Shown piece by piece: positions 54,492-61,605 of a stretch of 64,000 nucleotides of DNA; the first letter of the stretch is position 1, and the number at the start of each line of letters is the position of its first letter. The translations under genes were made by a program, and so were the position numbers. Under the pieces are notes generated by a model. It searched no databases. It saw only the letters and a list, made by a program, of their open reading frames with translations, and was not told the DNA's origin. This DNA is from an uncultured Nitrospiraceae bacterium (GTDB lineage Bacteria; Nitrospirota; Thermodesulfovibrionia; Thermodesulfovibrionales; UBA6898), in the NCBI GenBank assembly GCA_963811165.1, contig CAWEQH010000010.1, positions 128,001 through 192,000 on the forward strand, given 5' to 3'.

Positions 54492-55394
54492 GTGCTTCTG
54501 CAACAGGTGATCAATGGTCTTACCCTCGGGAGCGTCTACGCGCTGATTGCGCTCGGGTACACCATGGTTTACGGCATACTCGAACTGATCAATTTTGCCC
54601 ATGGTGAAATATATATGCTCGGGGCCTATCTGGGGATTATCCTCCTGGGGTTCTTTACCGCCATCGGACTTACCGCGTACAGCCTTCCCCTGGCGATCGT
54701 TCTGGTGCTTGTACTCACCGTGATGTTCTGCTCATCTTACGGATTCACTATCGAAAAGATCGCATATAAACCTCTCAGGAAGGCGCCGAGGCTCAGCCCG
54801 CTGATCAGCGCGATAGGGGTCTCAATCTTCCTGCAAAATTACGTGATGCTGACTCAGGGGGCGACCGACAAGGTATTCCCCTCCCTCTTCGGGCAAGGAG
54901 GGTTTACGTTTCTTTCAACGAGCGTCACCTATCTGCAGGCGGCCATAATTGCCGTCTCTGCGCTGATGATGTTGCTTCTCCATGCCTTCGTAATGAAGAC
55001 CAAGACGGGCAAGTCCATGCGCGCGGTCGCCCAGGACAAGACGATGGCCTCGCTCTTGGGCATAAACGTAGATGCGGTGATATCGGTCACCTTTGTCATC
55101 GGTTCGGGACTTGCTGCGATCGCCGGCGTGATGGTTGCGGCCTATTACGGGCTCGTAAACTACTATATCGGATATATCGCCGGGATCAAGGCCTTTACCG
55201 CTGCGGTGCTGGGCGGCATAGGCAGCATCCCGGGGGCGATGTTCGGCGGCATCCTCTTGGGACTTGTCGAAAGTCTCGGCGCCAGTTACGTATCGAGTGA
55301 ATACAAGGACGCCTATGCGTTCCTTATCCTGATCGTCATTTTGCTTGTCAAACCCGAGGGCCTCCTCGGAAAAACGCCGGAGGAAAAAATATAG
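54492..55394 (+). CDS. livH: branched-chain amino acid ABC permease
   Basis: GSVYALIALGYTMVYG..INFAHG, KAFTAAVLGGIG. Confidence 0.93.
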   Translation: MLLQQVINGLTLGSVYALIALGYTMVYGILELINFAHGEIYMLGAYLGIILLGFFTAIGLTAYSLPLAIVLVLVLTVMFCSSYGFTIEKIAYKPLRKAPRLSPLISAIGVSIFLQNYVMLTQGATDKVFPSLFGQGGFTFLSTSVTYLQAAIIAVSALMMLLLHAFVMKTKTGKSMRAVAQDKTMASLLGINVDAVISVTFVIGSGLAAIAGVMVAAYYGLVNYYIGYIAGIKAFTAAVLGGIGSIPGAMFGGILLGLVESLGASYVSSEYKDAYAFLILIVILLVKPEGLLGKTPEEKI

Positions 55395-55419
55395 TCGCAT
55401 GGGCGTTGAGGAAAAAACA

Positions 55420-56526
55420 ATGAAGCGTTTCCTGATGCCTGCAGCTACGGCCCTCTGGCTTTCGTTTCTCTTTCTGCCTTTTAAAGGATTGAAGGCCGCA
55501 TCCCTGCTTTTCCTCGTTTTGGTTGTGGCTGTTCCTCTGGCAAAAGTCGTATCGGTCATGATACGTAAGGCATGGCCTTATCTTGAAAGGGTGAGCAGGC
55601 TTATCCCGCGCGACAAAAGATTTATATATGTTCTCTTGGTCCCAGTACTGCTCCTCCCCTTTGTGGCCGAGGACTATGTCGTGGATGTGGCGGTCATATC
55701 CGGCATCTATATCATCCTTGCCCTCGGTCTTAATGTCGTTGTCGGCTATACCGGCCTTCTTAATCTGGGGTTTGTTGCGTACTACGCTATCGGAGCATAC
55801 AGCTATGCGCTTCTCAATACGAAACTCGGGATGGGTTTTTGGACCGCACTGCCGGTATCGGTAGTTGTTACGACCCTTGCCGGTTTTTTGTTCGCGGTCC
55901 CGGCGTTAAGACTGAAAGGCGATTATCTTGCCATAGTAACCCTCGGCTTCGGAGAGATAGTCCGCCTTGTGTTCAACAACTGGGACAGTTTCACAAAAGG
56001 GCCCAACGGCATATCGGGCATCGCCCCGCCGTCTCTTGGGGACATGGTTATCGGGAAGATTTCGCACTACTATTTCCTCGTCTTTTTTTTCGTAATCCTG
56101 ACCGTTTTCGTCATGAGGCGGGTGCAGGATTCGAAGATCGGCAGGGCCTGGATCGCGATACGCGAGGACGGGATCGCGTCGTCCGCGATGGGGATCAATA
56201 CGATGATGTACAAGCTCTATTCAGTCGCTTTCGGGGCCTTCTGGGCCGGGCTGGCTGGCTGCTTATTTGCGGCCAAGATGAGGTTTGTCTCACCCGAGAG
56301 TTTTACCTTCATGGAATCGGTCCTCATCTTATGCATGGTCATCATAGGGGGAATAGGGAGCATCGCCGGGGTAATAGTCGGCGCAATAGTGCTTGTTTTT
56401 TTGCCTGAGGTTCTCAGAGATGCGCAGATGTACCGGATGCTCGCGGTGGGCTGCGGACTGGTCTTTCTGATGGTATTTAGGCCGCAGGGACTTTTCGGGA
56501 GGAAAAGTGTTTCTCTTGGAGGTTAA
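55420..56526 (+). CDS. livM: branched-chain amino acid ABC permease
   Basis: GLNVVVGYTGLLNLG, LKGDYLAIVTLGFGE, RPQG. Confidence 0.93.
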   Translation: MKRFLMPAATALWLSFLFLPFKGLKAASLLFLVLVVAVPLAKVVSVMIRKAWPYLERVSRLIPRDKRFIYVLLVPVLLLPFVAEDYVVDVAVISGIYIILALGLNVVVGYTGLLNLGFVAYYAIGAYSYALLNTKLGMGFWTALPVSVVVTTLAGFLFAVPALRLKGDYLAIVTLGFGEIVRLVFNNWDSFTKGPNGISGIAPPSLGDMVIGKISHYYFLVFFFVILTVFVMRRVQDSKIGRAWIAIREDGIASSAMGINTMMYKLYSVAFGAFWAGLAGCLFAAKMRFVSPESFTFMESVLILCMVIIGGIGSIAGVIVGAIVLVFLPEVLRDAQMYRMLAVGCGLVFLMVFRPQGLFGRKSVSLGG

Positions 56527-57268
56527 GTCTCTTTCGAAACACTTCGGGGGCATCAGGGCGATCGAAGATATAAGTTTTTCTGTGCGGGGCGGCGCCATCA
56601 TGAGCATCATAGGGCCCAACGGCGCCGGGAAGACGACCCTATTTAACTGTCTCACGGGTTTTATTAAACCCACGAAGGGCAGCGTCACTCTTCATGAAAG
56701 AAACATCACGGGCATTTCCGCAGACAGGATCACCCGTCTTGGGATATCGAGGACCTTCCAAAACATACGGCTGTTCAGGGAGATGTCTGTGGTCGAAAAT
56801 ATAATGGTCGCCCAGCACTCAAGGATACGCTCGGGCCTCCTGGGGGCCGTCCTTAGACTTCCGGCGTTTGGCAAAGAGGAGAGGGAAGTGCGGCAGAAGT
56901 CCTGCGAATATCTCGAACTCCTCGGATTAGAAACGCTGGCCGGAAATACTGCCGGCAGTCTGGCTTACGGCATCCAGAGGAAGATCGAGATCGCCAGGGC
57001 ACTGGCCACCGAAGCCGGCGTACTATTGCTCGACGAACCGACTGCCGGAATGAACCCTCAGGAGACGGACGAGATGATGATCATCATCAAGAAGCTGAAA
57101 CAACTCGGAAAGACCATACTCCTCATCGAACACGATATGAAAGTCGTTATGGGGATCTCGGAACGCATTATCGTCCTGGACCACGGGGTGAAGATCGCCG
57201 AAGGCATGCCTAAGGAGATAAGGACCGACCCGCTGGTGATCGAGGCCTATCTCGGAAAGGAGATGTAG
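56507..57268 (+). CDS. livG: branched-chain amino acid ABC ATPase
   Basis: GPNGAGKTT, RTFQNIRLF, LDEPTAG, IEHDM, EAYLG. Confidence 0.93.
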   Translation: MFLLEVKSLSKHFGGIRAIEDISFSVRGGAIMSIIGPNGAGKTTLFNCLTGFIKPTKGSVTLHERNITGISADRITRLGISRTFQNIRLFREMSVVENIMVAQHSRIRSGLLGAVLRLPAFGKEEREVRQKSCEYLELLGLETLAGNTAGSLAYGIQRKIEIARALATEAGVLLLDEPTAGMNPQETDEMMIIIKKLKQLGKTILLIEHDMKVVMGISERIIVLDHGVKIAEGMPKEIRTDPLVIEAYLGKEM

Positions 57269-57274
57269 CAGAGG

Positions 57275-57973
57275 ATGCTGAGGCTCGAAAAGGTACATAC
57301 GCATTACGGACCGATAGAGGCGCTCAAGGGCGTCGACATAGAGATAAAAAAAGGGGAAATCGTCTCGCTAATCGGCAGCAACGGGGCCGGCAAATCTACC
57401 TGCCTCATGACGATATCCGGTGTCCTTACGCCTTCCTCGGGGAGCATTAGGGTAAACGGGACGGCCATATCGGGAATGCCTGCGCACAGGACAGTAGAGA
57501 TAGGGATAAGCCAGGTGCCGGAAGGAAGAAGGATCTTTCCTAAACTGACGGTCATGGAGAACCTCGAGATGGGCGCCTTCCTCGGCCGGGGCGATTTTTC
57601 GGCGCTGCTCGAAGACGTATTCAGGCTCTTCCCGATCCTGAAAGAGAGATCGAAGCAGTACGGCGGGACCCTTAGCGGAGGGGAGCAGCAGATGCTTGCG
57701 ATAGGGAGGGCGCTTATGTCGAAGCCCGAGATACTCCTGCTCGATGAACCCTCACTCGGTCTTGCGCCTATCATGGTGACGAAGATCTTCAGGACGATCC
57801 AGGAGATCAACAAAGAGGGGGTAACGGTCCTCCTTGTAGAACAAAACGCACGGGCAGCCCTCAAGCTCTCAGACAGGGGATACGTCCTTGAAAACGGCGC
57901 GGTCACGCTCTCGGGCGACAGCGAATCCCTCCTAAATAATGAAAAAGTGAGACACGCCTATCTGGGGGAATAA
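57275..57973 (+). CDS. livF: branched-chain amino acid ABC ATPase
   Basis: VPEGRRIF, LSGGEQQML, DEPSLGLAP, VEQNA. Confidence 0.93.
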   Translation: MLRLEKVHTHYGPIEALKGVDIEIKKGEIVSLIGSNGAGKSTCLMTISGVLTPSSGSIRVNGTAISGMPAHRTVEIGISQVPEGRRIFPKLTVMENLEMGAFLGRGDFSALLEDVFRLFPILKERSKQYGGTLSGGEQQMLAIGRALMSKPEILLLDEPSLGLAPIMVTKIFRTIQEINKEGVTVLLVEQNARAALKLSDRGYVLENGAVTLSGDSESLLNNEKVRHAYLGE

Positions 57974-58093
57974 GACGCTGAAAAAACGATTTGACGGGTG
58001 TATTACGGTCCATACGGATGCAAGTTGCATATCTTGTCATTTTGTTTTCTTGTTGGCTATACTGGCTATTATTTCTCTCAGGAGGGAACCTAT

Positions 58094-58525
58094 ATGAGGG
58101 TGAGAACTTATTGTTATGTTTTTGTTGTAGCGGTAACTCTTACTATTTTTTCACAGGCGACGGCCTTTGCGGACGCCGGCTTTGAAAAAAAGGCGGTGGC
58201 TGCCGCGGATTCGTGGCTGAGACTTATCGATAACGGAAAATATACGGAGAGCTGGGAAGCCGCTTCAGAGCTCTTCAGGGCGGCGGGCGAAAAAGGGCAG
58301 TGGGGCCGGCAAGTCGGAGCGGTTCGCGGGCCGTTAGGCAAGGTGTTACAAAGAAAACTTAAATCGAAGCAATTTATGACGAGCCTGCCGGGTGCACCTG
58401 ACGGCAAGTATGTAGTTATCCGGTATGATACGTGGTTTGAAAACAAGAAGGCCGCAGTCGAGACGGTCACGCCGATGCTTGATAAAGACGGCAAATGGCG
58501 GGTCTCGGGATATTACATCAGGTAA
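58094..58525 (+). CDS. DUF4019-type secreted protein
   Basis: Signal peptide AFA; WLRLID, LPGAPDGKY, ETVTP, WRVSGYYI. Confidence 0.85.
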   Translation: MRVRTYCYVFVVAVTLTIFSQATAFADAGFEKKAVAAADSWLRLIDNGKYTESWEAASELFRAAGEKGQWGRQVGAVRGPLGKVLQRKLKSKQFMTSLPGAPDGKYVVIRYDTWFENKKAAVETVTPMLDKDGKWRVSGYYIR

Positions 58526-58670
58526 CCTTATTCAGTAATTATCCAATAACAGATTTTGATGAGCGTCTGCTTATGGGTGCGGTGTTTTTGCCGTGTTTGT
58601 CATTCCGGCTGATATGTATTAAACCTGTCAAGTGGATAAGCCGGTCTTTTCATTTTTTCTTTTTTTTGTT

Positions 58671-58875
58671 CATGCCGTGCATCATGGTCAGGGCACAAGA
58701 ACTTAGACGACGGTAGATCATTCTGATATACGCGGGTTGGCTACCGCATGACTTGTCTTCGTCGTGGAGCTGCCTCTGTCTTGTGTCGAGGGTCATCCTT
58801 ATTTCAGGAGCCTCAAGCCGGAATCGAGGATTCTCCATACCTGTTCTTTGAACCCTGGCCGGGATACGCGGCATG
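58671..58875 (-). ncRNA. predicted bridge/seek RNA in the 3' non-coding end of the IS
   Basis: Long basal stem (58671-58702 with 58843-58875) enclosing two stem/internal-loop domains whose loops match the target and donor junction; folded by eye. Confidence 0.8.
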
Positions 58876-58976
58876 TGGTAAAAAACCTGTTGTCTGCAGG
58901 GGCGAAGAAACCCCGCATAACTTTCGAAGCCCCGTAAGACAATTTCCTTTGTTCTTTTTTCCGTCATCAGTCCCTT

Positions 58977-60107
58977 TTATCCGTTCAGCACAACACTGAT
59001 ATTGCCTTTTCCCATAACTTCGCAGGCAATGGCCCAGATAAAGCCAACCAATTCCCGGGCCACCGCCGTACAACTCTTAACCGGGAGTTTACCTTTATTA
59101 ATCAAATACCAGTATCGACTGCAAAGTCTCTTCTGAGCTTTCCAGGCGATCTCCTGGACAGCCTTGCTGGTCTTCTCAGCCTTTCGTCTCAAATGGGCGG
59201 TCTTGCGAGCCGGTAGGCGATAGCACCAAGATGCCTCTATCAGCACTCGCCTTACGTGACCGTTTCCGGTCTTTGTAATTCCACCCCGCTTTTGCCGCTC
59301 TCCGCTTGAATGTTCCGACGGCACTAGCCCCAGGTGTGACATCAGCTGACCGGCTGTTGCGAAGCGGCTGAGGTCCCCGAGTTCGGCAACTATCGTCATC
59401 GCAGCCACAAGGTCAATACCTCGCAACGCCACTAGTCCCTCGACTATCGGCTTCAGCGTCCAACCTCTCAGAGCCTTCCTTATTTCCTCCTCCATGGAAG
59501 CTACCCGCTCCTGTGTATGCTTAACCATATCTATATATTCCTGAAACACTATCTGTTGGGCTGCCGTCTCAAATCGTAAACTCTCAAGCCACCTAAAATA
59601 TATTTTCGTCCATTTGCTCCGGCCGGGATAAATCTTCCCGTGTCTCAATAAAAATCCTCCAAGACGCTGCCGGCTCGTCCGCTCCATCCCCTTCATGTCT
59701 TCCCGCGCTCGCGTCAGGTCCCTCATCGCTTCCTGCTCTTTATCAGGCACCCAGATCGGGGTGAGTTCTCCAGCCCTCAGTAGACGCGCAAGACTTACTG
59801 CGTCTCTCCGGTCCGTCTTCACCCTGTCTCCCGCTTTCTTCGGTATCAGAGACGGCGCAATCACAACGCAATCATACCCGGCTTTCGACAGTCGTCGATA
59901 AATCTCATATCCGCACGGCCCGGCCTCGTAACAGAACAATACTTGCTCTCCTCCCTTGCTCAGCTTCTTCGCAAGTTTCAGGTAGGCATGGGGTGCGTTA
60001 TCTATTGCCCCGTAAAAGCCCGCCTCTCCTCTGTCAGCATCCGCAGTGCCTACAGAAATATCCGCCTTGTGTACATCCAGTCCTATAAATTTGCTATACT
60101 TCTTCAT
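58977..60107 (-). CDS. IS110-family DEDD recombinase/transposase
   Basis: GLDVHK, CYEAGP, KTDRRDA (D-E-D-D); C-terminal GLVPSEHSSG with catalytic Ser; GITKTGN. Confidence 0.97.
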   Translation of the reverse strand: MKKYSKFIGLDVHKADISVGTADADRGEAGFYGAIDNAPHAYLKLAKKLSKGGEQVLFCYEAGPCGYEIYRRLSKAGYDCVVIAPSLIPKKAGDRVKTDRRDAVSLARLLRAGELTPIWVPDKEQEAMRDLTRAREDMKGMERTSRQRLGGFLLRHGKIYPGRSKWTKIYFRWLESLRFETAAQQIVFQEYIDMVKHTQERVASMEEEIRKALRGWTLKPIVEGLVALRGIDLVAAMTIVAELGDLSRFATAGQLMSHLGLVPSEHSSGERQKRGGITKTGNGHVRRVLIEASWCYRLPARKTAHLRRKAEKTSKAVQEIAWKAQKRLCSRYWYLINKGKLPVKSCTAVARELVGFIWAIACEVMGKGNISVVLNG

Positions 60108-60211
60108 AACCTGTCCTCCTTAATGTGGCTCTGAGCCTCTGGTTTCTCGACCTTTAGCTTAACCCACGTCCTTTAAGGTAGGACAGGTTTAATACATTAT
60201 GTCTTGTCCGA

Positions 60212-60340
60212 TAACCCCTCCCTGCCTCCCCTTATCAGGGGAGGATCCGCTCCTTCCCCCTTGATAAGGGGGGATAGAGGGGGGTTGGTTTCCCGACCTC
60301 CCTACCGGACAGGTCGGCGCACTTCGCTTGCGGGAATGAC
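60212..60340. repeat. composite REP-like palindromes
   Basis: Hairpins CCTCCCCTTATCAGGGGAGG and CCCCCTTGATAAGGGGG inside AACCCC...GGGGTT, then TTCCCGAC...CTTGCGGGAATGAC. Confidence 0.75.
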
Positions 60341-60374
60341 GGCTTCTACACCTTCAGGTAATATTGAACAGACT

Positions 60375-61385
60375 CTATTTCGACACGTCATTGAGCGCCT
60401 TAAGTATGTTTTGTTCCGTGATGTCCTTCGAGCCGACCAACTGGATCCTCTTTTTCGTCTTTGTGTTATTCACCACGACTATCGGGGTGGATTTGACCCC
60501 GAACGCCTTGGCCGTCTCATCGAAGTACTGTGATCCCTTTGTCATTGCCAGGAAGGGCAGCGGTCTGTAGGTTACGCCAAGAGGAGCTATTGTTTTCTGC
60601 ACCTCTTCGGGTCCGGGCTCCTTTGACGTGAGGGAGAGAGCTACAAGCGCCTTCCTCAACGCCAGATATTTGCCCTTTTCATTGAGGAGAAAGGAAAGGT
60701 TATAAGGCATGTAGTTAAAAGATTCGGCGTGGATGGGCACGTCGATAAAGATGATTTTTGCCTTCTTAATTGTTGCGGAGACGGCCTTTTCGATCTCCGG
60801 CTCCGCCTTGCGGCAGTGAGGACAGAACCAATCCGTGAAGATATATAACTCCTGGGCGCTGCTTTCATTTCCCAGGAAAAAATTCATGGCCTTATCCTGG
60901 GCCTCGCTCTTGTGCGCGCCCTTAAAGGCTATCAAAAAGCCTGCGATTACCACTAAAACGATCAGCGATACCTTCTTAAAAAAAATCATAGTTATGTCAC
61001 TCCTGTCTTTTGAGATCGATAAAGCATCTTTTGCTTCGGCATAATATGCCAGGAGCGCCAGCAGATAGACCGCTGCCGCAACCCCGACGCATAACGGACA
61101 CCATTCTTTTATCACATATTTCTGGATCCAGAGGAATGCGATCTCCGCGCCGACTGCGGCCGAGATCATTATAACAAAAAAGGTTGAGAATACCCTGCGG
61201 GTGCGTCCGATTTCGAACGAGGCCCACGCGGCCGGGAAAAAAACAATTCCAAAAAAAGTAAAGGGAAGCCCCAGCAGGACGTACCTGTGTGTTTCTGCGC
61301 ATGCCGAGGTCCCGCACATATCCAGCAGCGAGGCCAGAGAGAGAACGAGCCCCGCAAGAAGGGCGGCTCTTGTGAGATAACGCAT
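60375..61385 (-). CDS. VKOR-like membrane domain fused to a DsbA/thioredoxin domain
   Basis: CGTSAC loop Cys pair, WCPLC in a TM region, soluble WFCPHC and cis-Pro STP. Confidence 0.85.
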   Translation of the reverse strand: MRYLTRAALLAGLVLSLASLLDMCGTSACAETHRYVLLGLPFTFFGIVFFPAAWASFEIGRTRRVFSTFFVIMISAAVGAEIAFLWIQKYVIKEWCPLCVGVAAAVYLLALLAYYAEAKDALSISKDRSDITMIFFKKVSLIVLVVIAGFLIAFKGAHKSEAQDKAMNFFLGNESSAQELYIFTDWFCPHCRKAEPEIEKAVSATIKKAKIIFIDVPIHAESFNYMPYNLSFLLNEKGKYLALRKALVALSLTSKEPGPEEVQKTIAPLGVTYRPLPFLAMTKGSQYFDETAKAFGVKSTPIVVVNNTKTKKRIQLVGSKDITEQNILKALNDVSK

Positions 61386-61605
61386 TTTCAATTCTGTTTT
61401 CTTCTCCCTCTTTTTCCACTGTCCGCTCAGTAAATGCCGTATTTATAATTTTAACATATATATCTTCCTCAGACCATTGAGACGCTAATCATGAGGAACA
61501 ATTCAGCCCTGGGCAGTTCTTTGCTAAGACGATAACCCGGCTTCCCTGGTAATGGTATTGTCGTCAGAGAGATTATTGTCAGGTATTTTATAGTACAATA
61601 CCCCT

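Follow-up and report, generated by a model that had tools for sequence, protein, structure and literature searches.

A predicted bridge/seek RNA and its IS110-family recombinase at a REP-like repeat in the genome of an uncultured Nitrospiraceae bacterium

The window analysed here, a 64,000-nucleotide stretch from the genome of an uncultured Nitrospiraceae bacterium, carries between two CT dinucleotides what is, as judged from its sequence, an intact IS110-family element of IS1111-type layout belonging to the ISSfr2/ISCARN28 clade (Table 1). The recombinase scored 259.8 bits against NF033542 ('IS110 family RNA-guided transposase'; cut-off 140). Its N-terminal DEDD RuvC-like domain is present, with PF01548 above the cut-off and residues D11, E61, D99 and D102, and the C-terminal Tnp domain (PF02371) carries the G--P----SG motif as GLVPSEHSSG at residues 260-269, in which S268, located via alignment to ISCro4, is the SG serine. 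A search of solved structures returned the distant ISCro4 as the only match (E = 4.7e-08). Approximately 366 bp of non-coding sequence lie downstream of the gene, compared with 95 bp upstream. A promoter scan of the linear element yielded 2 sites against 1.5 expected, none of them specific to the RNA; a promoter is predicted only as two hexamers at opposite ends of the element.

Two genes, for a DUF4019 protein and a VKOR-thioredoxin (DsbA-like) fusion (57998-58525 and 60375-61391), converge from either side on the repeat that the element interrupts, and 54492-57973 holds what we take, by eye, to be a branched-chain amino acid ABC transporter operon of the Liv type. The repeat itself is a TGTC-tagged REP-like repeat whose traits fit those of the CGTC/TGTC REP families (PMC3733652), the common traits being the TGTC tag, a stem starting with AT, a 5-base loop and frequent dimers. 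A search by term of the accessible portion of that paper (Di Nocera et al. 2013) returned no Nitrospira-type organisms and no IS110. The repeat arm motif is present in 82 copies in the genome, and near-identical empty copies of the composite repeat were found on contigs C1, C4 and C5. A GC-rich hairpin repeat (60213-60283), which has many partial copies genome-wide, is nested in the REP-like dimer. Three further TGTC/AGTC-tagged REP-like arms in the window (8531, 13921, 26944 (minus)) have other loops, and 0/3 match the guide described below.

According to the initial annotation, removal of the element restores its target; the 15-mer of this empty site does exist, in 8 exact occurrences in the 3.66-Mb genome, and for a guide-derived 12-mer 9 occurrences compare with the 0.44 that base composition would predict. 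A second copy of the element is present on contig C9 (14967-16562), with a protein 88.6% identical to that of the window copy; it interrupts a copy of this repeat at the identical base and has the same orientation. The RNA core of the two copies is 96% identical. The gene is only 83% identical, and neither copy is therefore a recent daughter of the other.

Table 1. Coordinates (window numbering) of the element, its predicted RNA and the interrupted repeat.
Feature	Position	Strand	Remarks
IS110-family insertion sequence	58611-60202	minus	1592 bp between two CT cores; 1594 bp with one core
Recombinase/transposase gene, 376 aa	58977-60107	minus	PF01548, PF02371, NF033542
CT core, right-end junction	58609-58610	plus	
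CT core, left-end junction	60203-60204	plus	
Sub-terminal inverted repeat, right end	58614-58629		perfect 16-bp match to 60182-60197; 3 bp inside end
Sub-terminal inverted repeat, left end	60182-60197		7 bp inside end, core counted
Predicted circle-junction promoter, -35 hexamer TTGACA	58626-58631	minus	motif only
Predicted circle-junction promoter, -10 hexamer CATAAT	60196-60201	minus	18-bp spacer once ends are joined; motif only
Predicted bridge/seek RNA core	~58676-58866	minus	77-RNA alignment, pair counts, model R1 (190 bits); ends approximate
Target-binding domain (domain 1)	58773-58836	minus	stems 58836-58833, 58829-58826/58776-58773, 58815-58811/58791-58787
Donor-binding domain (domain 2)	58707-58765	minus	outer stem 58765-58760/58712-58707, inner stem 58748-58744/58735-58731
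Left target guide, UUCCGG + core CU	58816-58823	minus	identical to target plus strand; covariation
Right target guide, ACA + AG	58780-58784	minus	complementary to core and right target; covariation
Handshake dinucleotide AC, target loop	58778-58779	minus	complementary to donor bases adjoining core
Left donor guide (putative), short, degenerate: AAGUC vs donor ATGTC	58750-58754	minus	weak covariation
Right donor guide, AUAUC + AG	58723-58729	minus	tracks right-end sequence, 6 end classes
Left part of interrupted TGTC-tagged REP-like repeat (left target)	58598-58608	plus	
Remainder of composite repeat	60205-60340	plus	right target, GC-rich hairpin ~60213-60283, inverted closing arm 60330-60340

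The 3' non-coding region had been annotated as encoding a structured RNA of two domains, in which ATTCCGGCTTG (58824-58814), ACAAG (58784-58780) and ATATCAGA (58729-58722) were the proposed guides; all three motifs are present on the minus strand. For the 205-nt stretch the predicted folding energy is -76 kcal/mol (z = -4.5), and none of 200 shuffles was as stable. Relatives were collected from 73 genome loci and the best 80 of 277 metagenome loci; among 155 loci the right end could be called in 129 and both ends in 103, and 26 had no end call. We then aligned 77 of the 82 unique RNAs (alignment A3), excluding 5 with an insertion. Three REP-targeting relatives (L121, L124, L125) have an insertion of ~27 nt within the RNA. 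In a structure drawn by hand over the 77 RNAs, the helices were 94.4% paired, compared with 36-48% in slid controls, and 12 of 32 pairs showed two-sided changes; the drawing started from the window's own fold, so that these pair counts lean towards it. Unguided RNAalifold gave a partial and different fold, with the basal stem and the inner hairpin of the donor domain but none of the target-domain helices. As a model, the two-loop fold thus appears well supported, though not independently proved. Domain 2 was the most conserved part of the RNA in this alignment.

A search with model R1 recognised the RNA in 55 of 60 further loci, ISSfr2 (90 bits) among them, with protein identity as low as 46%; another search with the same model matched 3 of 60 relatives. 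In this genome, where 150 of 599 candidates were scored, the model found the two full elements only and no stand-alone copy of the RNA. An Rfam scan of 58500-60400 returned nothing at the gathering score, and 5 weak matches at chance level.

Tested on the window sequence alone, the guide matches were mostly weak against shuffles, and the case therefore rests on relatives. The 11-nt left target match did beat chance (1 of 2000 dinucleotide shuffles). The opposite-strand target match was not significant by itself, its longest form being 6 nt and lying in domain 2 (494 of 2000 shuffles). As a target guide this segment, GACAAG, was rejected: REP-targeting L101 and L111 have GATAAG there, and non-REP L134 has GACAAG.

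For the comparison of guides with insertion sites, we used elements of at least 55% protein identity and removed L071 (wrong end call) and L074 (misaligned), which left 96. The left guide matched the flank at a mean of 4.65 of 6 positions (48 unique guides from 94 elements); the shuffled mean was 1.87 and the maximum 2.55, so that none of 20,000 shuffles came up to the observed mean. The right guide matched at a mean of 2.98 of 4 positions, compared with 1.49 when shuffled (30 unique guides from 72 elements), and again 0 of 20,000 shuffles reached it, although such counts overstate the significance since kin are not independent. Both target guides therefore co-vary with the insertion sites of homologues, a test that the initial annotation had called for, and it is by covariation only that ACAAG, its opposite-strand target guide, proves real. 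Insertions at unrelated sites were also looked for, and all 34 elements that share the window's register matched their flank at 6/6 positions. In 7 of these 34, which come from different branches, the guide differs from the common form and the flank is changed equally. Four misfits (L105, L127, L150, L031) match their own site at only 2/6, and L116, placed in the wrong register by rule, was scored 0 in this test and later reassigned by hand.

Two loci of relative G002 (L161 and L165, on contigs C46 and C10; with L166 and L167) carry left guides that match each other's right flank and not their own, and right guides that fit both left flanks found. An assembly swap is the simplest reading of these sequences, the alternative being cross-mobilisation by the sibling's RNA. 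L162 (G054:C84:3492-3702) has an intact donor domain and an expanded, disrupted target domain. L161, L162 and L165 were among 5 loci fetched late. In L004 (~1385-1402) the left flank resembles another right end, suggesting either that copies lie in tandem or that a circle junction was the insertion site.

In the transposase sense, the top-strand-pairing segment (58823-58816) precedes the bottom-strand-pairing one (58784-58780). The left guide occurs in two registers, one base apart, within a 9-base loop. Register 1, that of the window, comprises 6 nt followed by C or CT and is that of a REP-targeting clade of 20 members (support 96 in a quick tree) and, separately, of L136 and L116, while register 2, with 5 nt followed by CT and A, is found in most other elements. 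The first loop base (58824) matches the target in only 22 of 34 window-register elements and in 16 of 50 unique pairs of the other register, because of which it is probably not a guide and behaves as a linker; in the second genome copy this base is T, though the insertion site is the same. The UG at 58815-58814 opens the conserved inner stem, being TG in 58 of the 77 aligned RNAs with many different targets. With UG belonging to the stem and 58824 probably outside the guide, we take 58823-58816 (6 nt plus core) as the working left guide. Thus, the left target guide of the initial annotation stands as a match of 11 nt, but just 7-8 nt of it would work as a guide.

In domain 2, the segment proposed to pair with the donor junction follows the right end of the element. 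Across 92 elements with both ends called, it matched at 4.75 of 5 positions, compared with 3.24 when shuffled, over 6 end classes (88 of 20,000 shuffles); in the window by itself, the 8-nt match was equalled in 86 of 2000 shuffles. A distant subgroup from Alphaproteobacteria (L053-L061, L070) has repeated palindromic flanks and a different right end with a matching right donor guide. No clean left donor guide had been evident to the initial annotation, and the signal is indeed weak, at 2.23 of 4 compared with 1.75 when shuffled over 13 classes (49 of 20,000 shuffles; 1 of 20,000 when two registers were allowed, a choice made post hoc). Nevertheless, this covariation points to a short left donor guide that probably does exist, approximately GUC at 58752-58750 and perhaps the whole of 58754-58750. 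In one metagenome contig (L085; 900-925, 2345-2365), the 5-bp extension of the left end has been swapped for target-like bases, apparently via a shared AATG, and the guide is changed from GUC to GGC to match.

The first base of the target-loop handshake is the same as the initial base of the left end in 91 of 92 elements, among them 4, from at least two lineages, in which it is switched from A to T. We also considered a handshake of the donor loop with the target, as in IS621, and rejected it: the corresponding base in the donor loop agrees with the first target base in only 28 of 91 elements, and with the donor base in 65 of 91.

Taken together, these results indicate that the locus very probably holds an RNA-guided IS110-family element whose two-loop RNA names both target and donor. 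The covariation across relatives and the second copy at the same site bear out the earlier assignment to an IS110/IS1111-type recombinase with a bridge/seek RNA. By analogy with known systems, the element would excise as a circle, the joined ends would create a sigma-70-type promoter from which the recombinase and then the 3' RNA are transcribed, and the RNA would bind the recombinase. The covariation indicates that domain 1 pairs with both strands of the 11-bp target TTCCGG-CT-TGT, and domain 2 with the right end of the element and the core. A left donor guide of 3-5 nt, weakly shown, may contribute, and the remaining recognition of the ends would fall to the protein, through the 16-bp inverted repeats. 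Strand exchange would occur at the CT core, aided by the handshake of the target loop with the donor, and a guide set to a repeated extragenic palindrome would offer many landing sites outside genes.

It is unlikely, if not negligibly so, that the RNA is a real guide in a copy that is no longer active. At least 8 exact targets are empty and the two genome copies are just 83% identical over the gene, which would fit such a copy; however, both copies retain full open frames, the window copy keeps its catalytic residues, has perfect inverted repeats and carries a guide that agrees with its present site, and near-identical copies can drop out of assemblies. We consider it far less probable that domain 1 acts alone as a processed short seekRNA, with the ends read by protein and domain 2 vestigial or structural. 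An 82-nt seekRNA does suffice for ISEc11 (PMC11187229), the left donor guide is merely 3-5 nt long and the donor-loop handshake is missing, but a vestigial domain would have to be reconciled with the finding that domain 2 is the most conserved, that the sequence of its 3' side tracks the right end over 6 end classes and that, in one case (L085), a changed left end goes with the GUC-to-GGC change. The reading of the matches as chance, or as non-guiding remnants of target DNA picked up on insertion, is hardly credible and on the sequences already largely refuted. Although the 5-nt and the 8-nt match are each weak when taken singly (494 and 86 of 2000 shuffles), variable segments at fixed positions of a conserved scaffold track 48 different guides, and where a single base of the guide is changed, the flank is changed with it.

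Returning to an RNA that names both target and donor, we tentatively raise the possibility, to which we give somewhat less than even weight, that this clade uses a lopsided form of bridging. In this joint proposal, the left target guide would be accommodated in either register, the donor would be read mainly on the right, the handshake would involve the target loop only, and long protein-bound inverted repeats would replace most of the left donor guide. If true, this would bring the 'seek' and 'bridge' views into agreement where elements have inverted repeats, and would provide a recombinase with a natural panel of ~48 guides.

Bridge/seek systems have been known since 2024, and there is no new mechanism here. 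What the locus appears to provide is a well-supported, apparently intact recombinase-RNA pair whose clade is distant from the IS621/ISCro4 enzymes already studied. Its guide positions are mapped through natural reprogramming, making it a ready candidate for ortholog screens; a screen of orthologs in human cells drew on the IS621-like clade (10.1101/2025.05.14.653916). The pair also bears directly on how elements with long sub-terminal repeats recognise their ends, be it through RNA, through protein or through the two together. The suggestion that the pair is possibly uncharacterised overstated its novelty: the clade holds ISSfr2 and ISCARN28, the latter with a bridge RNA predicted in 2024.

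The comparisons that follow draw on portions of the papers cited. ISSfr2 was the nearest named relative among the 50 best plasmid matches, with none closer named there. Its protein is 53% identical over 365 aa, and the same RNA scaffold lies 3' of its gene (90 bits). It has an AG core and 7/3 inverted repeats, with a 10-point inverted-repeat match compared with 16 bp in the window element. The closest relatives of the window element are in Nitrospirota genome bins, and one clade member (L043) comes from an archaeal bin (Thermoplasmatota) although its nearest neighbours in the tree, at very short distance, are from Eisenbacteria bins, reflecting either transfer or a binning error. A published matrix (PMC11187229) gives ISSfr2 45-60% identity to a cluster that includes ISCARN28 (~50%), ISEc45 and ISPye17; ISCARN28 may be placed in the same clade by this matrix and a reading of its sequence, not by direct alignment. 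For ISCARN28, a bridge RNA with LTG, RTG, LDG and RDG has been predicted (Durrant 2024; PMC11208160, Extended Data Fig. 10). The window element differs from the ISSfr2/ISCARN28/ISEc45/ISPye17 clade in its target, a TGTC-tagged REP-like repeat, and in a shifted register of the left guide. Searches for the clade's names yielded only resistance-genomics papers and Durrant 2024, and no experimental study of the ISSfr2/ISCARN28 clade was found in the literature searched, which lay outside paywalled papers and ISfinder.

ISSfr2 is ~19-26% identical to core IS1111 proteins, yet it is labelled IS1111 in the Fig. 8b sheet of PMC11187229. We accordingly describe the class as IS1111-type layout rather than core IS1111, the window protein being placed via ISSfr2 and not by alignment to IS1111. 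Predicted bridge RNAs are reported in 93% of IS1111 elements (Durrant et al., PMC11208160). The IS1111-type seekRNA elements ISEc11, ISKpn4, ISPst6 and ISPa11 (Siddiquee et al. 2024, PMC11187229) have 7/3 sub-terminal repeats, as found here, and share with the window element a downstream non-coding region, a top-strand guide that comes first and a junction promoter, here a predicted one. Their proteins are 330-350 aa long, compared with 376 aa here, and whereas the portion of PMC11187229 used describes target matches only, the donor-binding domain has covariation support here. Targeting of REP sequences is known for ISPa11 (PMC11187229), IS621 and ISPpu9 (PMC12288879).

Relative to IS621 and ISCro4 (IS622) (PMC11208160, PMC11208158, PMC13626964), the window element differs in having its RNA in the right end and not the left, long inverted repeats and shorter guides. 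The donor-loop handshake seen in IS621 (PMC11208158) is absent from its clade. The CT core and the two internal loops with left and right guides are common to all three, as are a left donor guide, putative in the window element, with a final C and an unpaired A after it (IS621: PMC11208158) and a handshake adjoining the right target guide.
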